A stretch of 64,000 nt of DNA from positions 352,001 through 416,000 of the IMG/VR virus record IMGVR_UViG_3300037313_001869. One strand, 5' to 3'. The stretch comes from a virus (lineage: Duplodnaviria > Caudoviricetes). This document shows positions 45,432 through 46,583 of the stretch, piece after piece. Position 1 is the stretch's first letter; every line of letters begins with the position of its first letter. Below the pieces are notes generated by a model. That model had not been told where the DNA came from. It did not search any database and saw nothing but the letters and a program-made list of their open reading frames with translations. Both the position numbers and the translations under genes were made by a program.

Positions 45432-46583
45432 ATGGCGAGAACACCTTGGTGGCAGGCGCGGACGTACCCCTCGTTCGGCGATCACTTTTCTTTCACCGTC
45501 AACTGGTATCGCACGGTGGCCGTCCAGGCGGCCTTCGAGGGCGGCCCCCCGTGTCTCCTCGGTCGTCGCAACGGCGTGCTCACCAAGGGCCATGACGAGG
45601 CCGTCAAGGAGCTGGTCGAGGCGCTCGGGGTTCGGGTCGTGCTCGACGATCGCGACGAGCTGGGCCGGGGGACGATCGGCCTCGGCTCCCATGACATGCA
45701 GGTCGTCTTGACCCTCTGGGGCTCGCCGTCGAACATGACCGGGGACCTTCAGTTCACCTGCGTGAGCCCGGAGCTGCTCTCGAAGGCCCGCGACCTCTCG
45801 AAGCACCTGCTCCGGCCCCCGTCGAAGGAGGGAGGTCCGGTCTTCGCTCTCACGAAGAACGGCGACGACTACGACACGACGCGCATCGGTACAGCCGGTT
45901 CGCCCCTGGAGCGCGGAAACTACGGCGCCAAGGTCCTCGAAGACTACGACCACCTGGTCAAGGACCTCGGGGCGAAGACGCCCTGCGGCCGGCTCGTCAT
46001 CTTCTCGGGCGAGCCTGGCACGGGCAAGACCTTCCTGGTCCGCTCGCTCCTCTTGAACGTGAAGGACGCCACCTTCCTGCTCGTGCCCCCGCACCTGATG
46101 GCGAACCTCGGCGACCCCGAGCTGATCTCGGTCCTTGCCGGGGCCCGCGAGGGGAAGGGTCCGCTGGTCATCCTGGCCGAGGACGCCGACGACTGCCTCG
46201 TTCCGCGCGAGGACGGGGACCACGTCGACCTCGAAAACATCCAGGCCGTCCTGAACCTCGGCGACGGCATCCTCGGCAGCGTGCTCGACGTGCGCGTGGT
46301 CATCACGACCAACGCCCCGCGCATGAAGATGGACCGGGCGGCCATCCGGCCCGGCCGTCTCTGCAAGCACCTGCACGTCGATGCGCTGAGCCCCAAGGAG
46401 GCCGAAGCGGTTCTCGACCGGCTTCTCGTGACCCGTGAGCCGAGCATGGTCCCGGTCTTCTCCGACGCGACCCCGCTCGCGCAGGTCTACGCCAAGGCGC
46501 GGCAGATGGGGTGGGTACCGCCCGAGCCCCCGTCCGACGACGCAGAGGAAGAGGTTGACAGCGACGACTCCTACCCGGGCTGA
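45432..46583 (+). CDS. AAA+ ATPase
   Basis: Walker A GEPGTGKT, Walker B VILAEDAD, sensor/SRH ITTN...DRAAIRPGR. Confidence 0.9.
   Translation: MARTPWWQARTYPSFGDHFSFTVNWYRTVAVQAAFEGGPPCLLGRRNGVLTKGHDEAVKELVEALGVRVVLDDRDELGRGTIGLGSHDMQVVLTLWGSPSNMTGDLQFTCVSPELLSKARDLSKHLLRPPSKEGGPVFALTKNGDDYDTTRIGTAGSPLERGNYGAKVLEDYDHLVKDLGAKTPCGRLVIFSGEPGTGKTFLVRSLLLNVKDATFLLVPPHLMANLGDPELISVLAGAREGKGPLVILAEDADDCLVPREDGDHVDLENIQAVLNLGDGILGSVLDVRVVITTNAPRMKMDRAAIRPGRLCKHLHVDALSPKEAEAVLDRLLVTREPSMVPVFSDATPLAQVYAKARQMGWVPPEPPSDDAEEEVDSDDSYPG

Follow-up and report, generated by a model that had tools for sequence, protein, structure and literature searches.

The AAA+ ATPase gene at positions 45432..46583 of the phage DNA analysed here lies inside an array of small genes whose products end in a shared C-terminal tag with the consensus RF[DE]R[DE]EV[LI]. 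The analysed stretch (the window) is 64,000 nucleotides (nt) long and corresponds to positions 352001-416000 of IMG/VR record IMGVR_UViG_3300037313_001869, a 435,218-bp genome of 64.8% G+C from an uncultured phage, classed as a virus with direct terminal repeats and 100% completeness. A sequence-only reading of the window had proposed that the ATPase is the receptor for the tag. Our results did not bear out a dedicated tag receptor in the embedded ATPase. Tentatively, we favor the interpretation that the ATPase shares a docking system with the tag, in which the ATPase family's C-terminal tail and the tag address one docking site; the ATPase would then be a fellow bearer of the docking peptide or a partner at the site, and less likely its reader. 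Three weaker signals of modest strength, namely the adjacency of tagged genes to ATPase genes, the likeness between the ATPase tails and the tag, and the complementary distribution of the two across genomes, tie the ATPase family to the tag. The tie between the ATPase of the window and the tag is most likely indirect.

Gene counts and array boundaries are those of our own gene calls (584 genome-wide), W denotes the ATPase in the window, and Pg denotes its paralogue elsewhere in the same genome (G000). The ATPase gene, its parts and its flanking elements are as follows.

45432..46583, + strand: W-type AAA+ ATPase gene, 383 amino acids, ATG start, intact open reading frame (ORF)
45432..45926, + strand: N-terminal alpha/beta domain, residues 1-165 with a folded core at about 25-154; family-specific
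45927..46379, + strand: AAA module, residues 166-316, with Walker A, an ED Walker B, sensor-1 N294 and R306/R309
46380..46580, + strand: short helical lid, then a disordered, acidic C-terminal tail (SDDAEEEVDSDDSYPG), as placed by the model and the alignment
45412..45420, + strand: upstream motif CGGTGTAAG of the YGGTGTARG family, 12 nt before the ATPase ATG
46604..46641, + strand: intrinsic-terminator-like hairpin with a T-run; 17-pair stem, 9 G-C pairs

The classical AAA module noticed in the sequence-only reading was indeed intact. Pfam family PF00004 covers residues 189-316 of W (E 1.1e-8, 36 bits against a cut-off of 21.2), and the catalytic motifs are invariant in an alignment of 30 sequences: this holds in 30/30 for G193, G196, G198, K199 and T200 of Walker A (GEPGTGKT, residues 193-200) and for the sensor-1 residue N294 and the arginines R306 and R309 (RPGRL), and it holds for E250 and D251 of the Walker B region, VILAEDAD. 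The E250-D251 pair aligns to the D-E pair of Afg2, with the order of the two acids swapped. The GC3 (G+C at third codon positions) of the ORF is 0.90. Residues 1-165 match no Pfam family and yet are conserved in homologues, in agreement with the description of this region as an unrecognised N-domain. The tail, which ends in SDDAEEEVDSDDSYPG, is acidic as had been stated (8 of its last 16 residues are D or E), and residues 378-383 have a predicted local distance difference test score (pLDDT) below 50 in an AlphaFold2 model. None of the R-x-E-I-L, S-Y-I-L, G-Q-Y-L or h-G-F docking motifs is present in this tail, though relatives have them; the R-x-E-I-L tail that W lacks is the one carried by most orthologues.

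The likeness to the tag was found in the tails of these relatives. Among the 120 homologues listed, 59 have the pattern [RK]-x-[DE]-[IVL]-[LIV] in their last 16 residues, after a Pro-rich linker; by the rule used for tail classes, 60 of the 120 have an R-x-E-I-L-like tail and 5 end in SYIL. When tails were scored with a matrix built from the last five residues of the tag, against a background of 4243 ORF ends from tag-poor genomes, 41 of 119 homologues exceeded the 99th percentile and 19 of 119 the 99.9th. The tail and the tag are distributed in a complementary manner in 8/8 genomes. The W-type ATPases of the tag-poor genomes G002, G003 and G004 end in RPEIIGVL, ARPELV and LRKELL, respectively, whereas an R-x-E-I-L-type tail occurs on 0/6 ATPase genes of five tag-rich genomes (W and Pg of G000, and the genes of G001, G005, G007 and G010). 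The tails of these six are acidic or otherwise different, and the fragments G006 and G008 also lack the R-x-E-I-L type.

Other branches of the family carry different termini. Tail classes scored on 57 locus ATPases were h-G-F in 19/57, acidic in 14/57, G-x-Y-[LIV] at the end in 9/57, R-x-E-I-L-like in 7/57 and other in 8/57. GQYL is the motif by which Mpa and PafE dock on and open the mycobacterial 20S core (PMC8142254). A second source describes a C-terminal tail of HslU that fits a pocket of HslV, an IGF loop by which ClpX docks on ClpP, and the use of the synthetic HslU C-terminal octapeptide EDLSRFIL in HslV peptidase assays (PMC4106860). Because the GQYL and h-G-F branches carry these known docking motifs, the tails of the ATPase family are, by analogy, likely to be plugs for another ring, and the ATPase would bear a plug rather than a socket. 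By the same analogy, the GQYL-ended phage ATPases may plug into the host proteasome. Individual examples include the AAA-ATPase encoded by gene 256 of Mycobacterium phage ScoobyDoobyDoo (L186:1081-2271), which ends in GQYL, and the AAA ATPase of Myxococcus phage Mx1 (L187:2530-3684), which ends in IGFGS. Ends of the form GQY[LI] or G-[TA]-Y-[VI] were also seen in L044-L048, L033, L036, L038 and L039, and [ILMV]-G-F tails, often followed by an acidic run, in L016, L034, L040 and L058, for example.

We compared the occurrence of the ATPase and the tag across genomes, where G001-G010 are related records and L-numbers denote loci, among them 60 viral loci that hold ATPase relatives. The pattern R-F-[DE]-R followed by four codons and a stop was counted alongside a reversed-pattern control. 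Matches numbered 32 in G005 (control 1), 21 in G007 (1), 14 in G008 (1), 12 in G006 (0), 8 in G010 (1), 4 in G009 (0), 4 in G004 (2), 2 in G001 (1), 2 in G002 (4) and 1 in G003 (1). A full scan of ORF ends, controlled by the same test applied 30 residues upstream of the C-terminus, covered G000 and seven relatives (the first 400 of 417 kb of G002 and the first 340 of 363 kb of G004). It gave 86 tag ends in G000 (control 4), 47 in G007 (3), 44 in G005 (1), 21 in G010 (2), 19 in G001 (4), 6 in G004 (1), 5 in G002 (1) and 4 in G003 (2). The W type alone is found in G001, G002, G003 and G005, both types in G004 as in G000, and the Pg type alone in G006, G007, G008 and G010; G009, which is 7% complete, has neither. 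The co-occurrence of ATPase and array in related genomes, which the sequence-only reading had set as a test, therefore fails for the W orthologue in both directions: it is absent from the complete, tag-rich G007 and G010 and present in the tag-poor G002, G003 and G004. Each of the 9 records with a completeness of 14% or more has a member of one type or the other, whether its tags are many or few, which makes this broader comparison uninformative. RFDR-type ORF ends lie within 10 kb of the ATPase at 1 of 60 viral loci (L005, the same record as G005, with 9 ends). A variant of the tag, P-[TS]-x-W-[DE]-R-[LI]-x-x-[DE], closes about 12 ORFs of G001 (for example 69343-69615, 82110-82925, 92443-92895 and 148086-148592), and a gene with this variant sits immediately upstream of the W-type ATPase. 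The variant suggests that the tag system is wider and more variable than its RFDR form.

The distance from the nearest tagged ORF was determined for eight ATPase genes of six genomes, after tagged ORFs lying mostly inside an ATPase gene had been dropped. In G000 it was 363 nt for W (permutation P 0.23) and 0 nt for Pg (P 0.21), and in G004 it was 12781 nt for W (P 0.33) and 191 nt for Pg (P 0.04). The values for the W genes of G001 and G005 were 33 nt (P 0.06) and 558 nt (P 0.32), and those for the Pg genes of G007 and G010 were 29 nt (P 0.11) and 12 nt (P 0.08). A tagged ORF was thus found 0-558 nt from 7/8 ATPase genes, with a Fisher-combined P of 0.0098, or 0.020 without G010. The neighbor of Pg in G006, G007, G008 and G010 is a protein of 291-405 amino acids ending in RFERD[IF][GD]I, and that of W in G001 is a 168-residue protein ending in PTAWERMLLDFPDP. 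The gene upstream of W in G004 ends in PTRFDLEPPI, which the strict rule does not count. Among upstream neighbors, 12/51 end with [FWY][DE][RK] in the last 11 residues, compared with 88/5223 background ORFs; this enrichment was not used as a statistic because 8 of the 12 cases come from two gene families. A 205-residue neighbor family ending in LFERLS matches no Pfam family. Equivalence between the 385-residue tagged neighbor of Pg-type ATPases (G006-G010) and a 374-residue tagged neighbor in this genome was considered and rejected (hhalign probability 0.9%; nothing by BLAST). Overall, the proposal that the ATPase family and the tag belong together holds in part: an adjacency P of approximately 0.01, the tail likeness and the complementary distribution speak for it, whereas the co-occurrence specific to W fails.

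The ATPase family itself is widespread. A total of 423 proteins among 8000 scored candidates matched W at E <= 0.001, on contigs of up to 549 kb, and about 95 of the 120 homologues listed cover at least 90% of W, N-domain included. The closest relatives (P0002-P0004) are 45-54% identical to W. In the phage collection, 35 records matched, all at less than 60% identity and in the AAA part only; the best was the 'AAA ATPase' of Myxococcus phage Mx1, with 42% identity over residues 152-353. The PHROGs matches of W, phrog_14322 (E 1.7e-16) and 7485, are both annotated 'unknown function'. A limited look-up of the literature on jumbo-phage AAA+ ATPases found no description of such a phage ATPase, which does not imply that none exists. 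The second copy, Pg (genome 58066-59562), is 498 amino acids long, matches residues 108-379 of W and additionally contains an acidic linker and a further domain at the C-terminus; BLAST does not align the first ~100 residues of the two proteins. The W clade and the Pg clade are separate in a tree of 127 sequences, from which homologues shorter than 320 amino acids were left out, and reciprocal BLAST agrees. W has no conserved neighbors across loci, and in L051 and L052 its orthologue stands beside a core block that lies at 256-269 kb in this genome. Among the huge phages of this clade, the family ranks nearly as a core gene. The placement of W within the array is specific to this lineage, with a similar adjacency in G005 and another neighborhood in L051 and L052.

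The AlphaFold2 model of W (mean pLDDT 87.2, predicted template modeling score 0.76) comprises a confidently modeled alpha/beta N-domain (~25-154), an AAA core and a short lid. In a Foldseek search with this model, the best 12 rows were all Bcs1, the mitochondrial AAA translocase of the folded Rieske protein (top match 8tp1_A, E 3.2e-14, 396 columns), followed by YjoB (7w42), a chambered AAA+ chaperone of Bacillus subtilis. With VIA-align, the Bcs1 chains were the only ones aligned across the N-domain; their alignments start at model residue 31 or 40, end at 362 and comprise 265-294 residues (rmsd, the root-mean-square deviation, of 5.5-5.7, identity 16-22%), and their Z of 14.7-14.9 ties with rows that align the AAA part only (~14), among them proteasomal Rpt chains (Z ~14, W residues 141-362 only). 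By sequence, the closest solved structures to residues 173-321 are Afg2, p97 and Cdc48 (7wd3_A, E 5e-16; range to 1e-10). W lacks the aromatic residue of pore loop 1, having N-L-G where Afg2 has Y-L-G, and the position is never aromatic in 30/30 aligned family members (N, R, H, D, G, E, S or Q). The maximum 19-residue Kyte-Doolittle mean is 0.51 in the first 60 residues and 1.48 overall, indicating no N-terminal membrane anchor, and no Bcs1-type Pfam family matches W at E <= 0.01. YjoB forms a hexamer, and its chaperone activity, which keeps specific clients from aggregating, depends on the internal chamber (PMC9565160). The missing pore-loop aromatic, the Bcs1/YjoB-like fold and the chamber of YjoB together favor holding or remodeling of folded clients over threading, and the 'unfolding' activity suggested from the sequence is accordingly disfavored. 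We consider W to be a working single-ring ATPase of the classical AAA+ clade with an N-terminal cap apparently arranged as in the chambered Bcs1 and YjoB.

The tagged array has the following parts.

33648..45399, + strand: upstream part of the tagged array, 23 small genes
44980..45399, + strand: array member directly upstream of the ATPase, with a degenerate tag (PDRFSRVGDKDPF)
46946..50313, + strand: downstream part of the tagged array, 8 small genes

Between 33648 and 50313 there are 31 + strand genes of 116-154 amino acids, 23 upstream and 8 downstream, so that the ATPase gene does lie inside the array in the same orientation. A full tag (end R[FY]xRxx[VIP][LIV]) is present on 29/31 array genes. 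The two genes just upstream of the ATPase have degenerate tags, RFARL and RFSRVGDKDPF, and the gene just downstream, at 46665-46940, has none. The upstream part is broken by a minus-strand gene (39299-40081) and by the gene of a 489-residue HExxH protein (40997-42466, + strand). The tag extends beyond the array. Genome-wide, R[FY][DELG]R followed by four residues and a stop is found at 57 ORF ends, and a looser rule marks 69/584 gene calls, about 1 gene in 8. The array proteins are highly divergent: their mean column identity is 20%, the sole conserved residues are M1, R, F and R, and BLAST among them gave 22 directed hits at E <= 1e-3, corresponding to ~12 distinct pairs. One array member, modeled with AlphaFold2 from an alignment of 30 paralogues, has an all-beta body (pLDDT 86.5) and a tag-bearing tail, residues 121-138, without secondary structure (pLDDT 62-65). 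This model supports a flexible tail of small folded proteins as the probable site of the tag. The fold found no Foldseek match at E <= 0.001 in PDB or BFVD, and its best VIA-align Z was 5.0 over 48,161 chains; as modeled, it is a generic beta-sandwich only. In the seven related genomes, no homologues of the array genes were detected. An origin of the array family from a small gene conserved upstream of the ATPase was rejected: a hidden Markov model of the 31 array proteins matched only two tagged L005 ORFs (E 0.002 and 0.015), and nothing after removal of the tag.

The YGGTGTARG motif occurs 9 times in the window against 0.77 expected, a count reached in 0/100 shuffles, and further copies precede the genes at 33648, 40170 and 46665. 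It is likely a promoter or leader element that also stands before other blocks of array genes. The earlier statement that the ATPase shares a 'class II' upstream motif with the array was thus sustained as regards the copy 12 nt before the ATG, and the class label could not be mapped onto this motif with certainty. The strong terminator reported after the gene was confirmed: the stem of 17 pairs at 46604-46641, with its T-run, is the longest of 17 terminator-like sites in 39000-53000. With an upstream motif and a terminator of its own, the ATPase gene looks like a separate transcription unit within the array.

In the interpretation that we tentatively favor, the ATPase ring would hold or remodel folded clients in a chamber formed by its N-domains and would not thread them through an aromatic pore. 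In most orthologues, the Pro-rich linker and h-R-x-E-I-L terminus would form a tail of one kind with the tag's last five residues. The family tail would be a plug that fits a partner ring or surface, and the tag would put this same plug on dozens of small beta-sandwich proteins. The ATPase of tag-rich phages, which adjoins tagged genes, would have lost its own plug and would work with the tagged proteins as partners or clients at the shared site. Several points weigh against this interpretation. Because W itself carries no plug, we can only infer its role at the shared site. The likeness between tail and tag is limited to the last five residues, as a matrix of eight tag residues placed only 9/119 homologues above the 99th percentile and 1/119 above the 99.9th; moreover, the homologues are related, so the likeness amounts to about one evolutionary observation. 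The complementary pattern, coming from eight related genomes, is weak. The adjacency statistic is modest, with single-locus P values of 0.04-0.33 and the tag nearest to W in G004 12.8 kb away; the test was made after the pattern had been noticed, and the shared ancestry of the neighbors means that the loci are not fully independent. The tie in Z between Bcs1 and AAA-only alignments leaves the predicted assignment of the N-domain fold suggestive. Finally, no candidate third-party docking site and no proteasome-type gene were found in this genome, and a ClpP-like gene was rejected as the socket, its best PHROGs matches being head-maturation proteases. In a presence/absence profile of the 258 proteins that hit at least one of the seven related genomes, the 'tag-rich only' class held one 153-residue protein of no family, and the other genes that the profile yielded were of metabolic type.

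An extended form of the favored interpretation, which we consider unlikely, holds that the docking plug moved in trans. R-x-E-I-L would reside on the ATPase in tag-poor phages; tag-rich ones would have removed it from the ATPase and attached RF[DE]R[DE]EV[LI] to dozens of small, fast-evolving beta-sandwich proteins. The tagged proteins would plug the same site, located either on the ATPase ring or on a peptidase-like ring of host or phage. Such a modular delivery or remodeling system would be phage-encoded and have two paralogous motors, within a family of phage motors that plug the host proteasome, ClpP or HslV through host-matched tails. The receptor hypothesis, by which the W ring reads the RF[DE]R[DE]EV[LI] tag through its N-domain and the ~60 tagged proteins are adaptors or clients, appears distinctly improbable. 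It would account for the position of the ATPase gene within the array, for the tagged genes adjacent to 7/8 ATPase genes, and for the W orthologue of G005, which has a cluster of 16 tagged genes 558 nt away. Even in G004, with only 6 strict tag ends, one of these is 191 nt from Pg and the gene upstream of W ends in PTRFDLEPPI. The loss of the family's own tail exactly where tags abound would fit the freeing of a binding site, which in tag-poor relatives the ATPase's own R-x-E-I-L tail would fill in cis or on a neighboring subunit. The modeled flexible tail suits such binding, and AAA+ N-domains do bind adaptor tails, for example that of ClpX with SspB, as mentioned in PMC9565160. Nevertheless, G007 and G010, both complete and tag-rich, lack W and have Pg only, W-type genes occur in tag-poor genomes, and 59/60 loci of the family, which extends to many jumbo phages, have no RFDR tail within 10 kb. 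In addition, a pocket shared by the N-domains of W and Pg is not evident, as their first ~100 residues do not align by BLAST, and the analogy with GQYL and h-G-F suggests that the family tails point outward to another partner.

It is also quite possible, although we lean away from it, that no functional link exists and that W is a general phage chaperone or remodeler, acting for example in assembly or host takeover, whose gene lies in an accessory region of fast-evolving tagged genes. The ATPase family extends far beyond the tag, W has no conserved neighbors and its orthologue in L051 and L052 stands beside a core block, and with its own upstream motif and terminator W does not need co-expression with the array. 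Tagged ORFs are numerous and clustered, so that adjacency at a single locus reaches P values of just 0.04-0.33, and the lack of detectable homologues of the array genes in seven related genomes is in line with such a region. Against this stand the combined adjacency P of ~0.01-0.02, the match between the ATPase tail and the tag's last five residues at or above the 99th percentile of the background, and the complementarity of tail and tag in 8/8 genomes.

Several other genes were noted around the array and the ATPase paralogues. The last array-like gene, at 50314-50930 (+ strand) of the window, has the tag internally (KRTRFDREGPL) without a stop after it, and its frame runs on, antisense to the next gene. 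The 489-residue protein of 40997-42466 (+ strand) contains a zinc-peptidase-like HEFGH (HExxH) motif at residue 245 and a sub-threshold match to Pfam Peptidase_Mx1 (E 0.0043), and has one homologue among the seven related genomes (G007, 29% identity over 268 amino acids). Two Cys-rich paralogues, of 374 amino acids (window 50930-52054, - strand) and 282 amino acids (genome 51927-52775, - strand), match PHROGs 17208 and 28271, whose function is given there as unknown; each lies 4-5 kb from one ATPase paralogue, and in L011, L016 and L018 homologues are encoded at a distance of 2-3 kb from the ATPase.

Elsewhere in the genome, a ClpP-family protein is encoded at 273998-274615 (+ strand; L185; Pfam E 5e-27), and in L026, as also in L017, homologues are encoded ~4 kb from the ATPase. 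The 153-residue protein of the profile (genome 288780-289241, - strand; L225:2783-3241) is present in G001, G007 and G010 and absent from the tag-poor G002-G004, and its gene is one gene away from a tagged gene. Five proteins fit the profile 'G005, G007, G010 only': a SLOG-like protein (below the Pfam cut-off), a NUDIX protein, a dephospho-CoA-kinase, a treble-clef protein and one without a family. A cluster of SLOG/YpsA-like, NUDIX, dephospho-CoA-kinase-like and treble-clef zinc-finger genes at genome 334094-341256 (L224) occurs in only G005, G007 and G010 among the seven relatives, and its gene content suggests a nucleotide-metabolism module.

The tag marks about 1 gene in 8 of a 435-kb phage, and identification of its reader would assign a role to dozens of orphan genes. 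The present results narrow the search for this reader, in that the ATPase is not a dedicated receptor and its family appears to bear the same kind of tail, while the tails of its other branches have motifs whose docking on the proteasome and ClpP is known. If the shared docking system is real, the jumbo-phage AAA+ family of PHROGs 14322 and 7485 would consist of motors plugging into compartmental peptidases, and the tag would be a means of sending many proteins to the same place.

W can be compared with several known groups of AAA+ proteins. Like Bcs1 and YjoB, it has a single AAA module after a modeled alpha/beta N-domain, but it is without the membrane anchor of Bcs1. It shares the classical-clade motifs, including the RPGR arginines, with Afg2, p97/VCP, Cdc48 and Rpt, and differs from all of these in having Asn at their pore-loop aromatic position; in contrast to Afg2, p97 and Cdc48, it has one AAA module rather than two and an unrelated N-domain. 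The ClpX-SspB pair, an instance of the adaptor analogy drawn in the sequence-only reading, resembles the phage case as proposed there in that a short peptide at the end of an otherwise unrelated protein brings that protein to an AAA+ ring. In the phage, however, there would be ~60 carriers and two paralogous ATPases, and the co-occurrence of W fails. A further parallel lies with HslU, Mpa, PafE and ClpX, as members of the phage family have a flexible, Pro-rich linker and, at its end, a short conserved motif (GQY[LI], h-G-F or S-Y-I-L), although the IGF of ClpX is on a loop and the h-G-F of the phage proteins is on a C-terminal tail, and W itself has no docking motif of the kind found in peptidase-docking AAA+ proteins. 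The tag has Glu where HslU has a conserved aromatic residue. Within this comparison of docking tails, the tag and the R-x-E-I-L tail are alike in that both end in two aliphatic residues.

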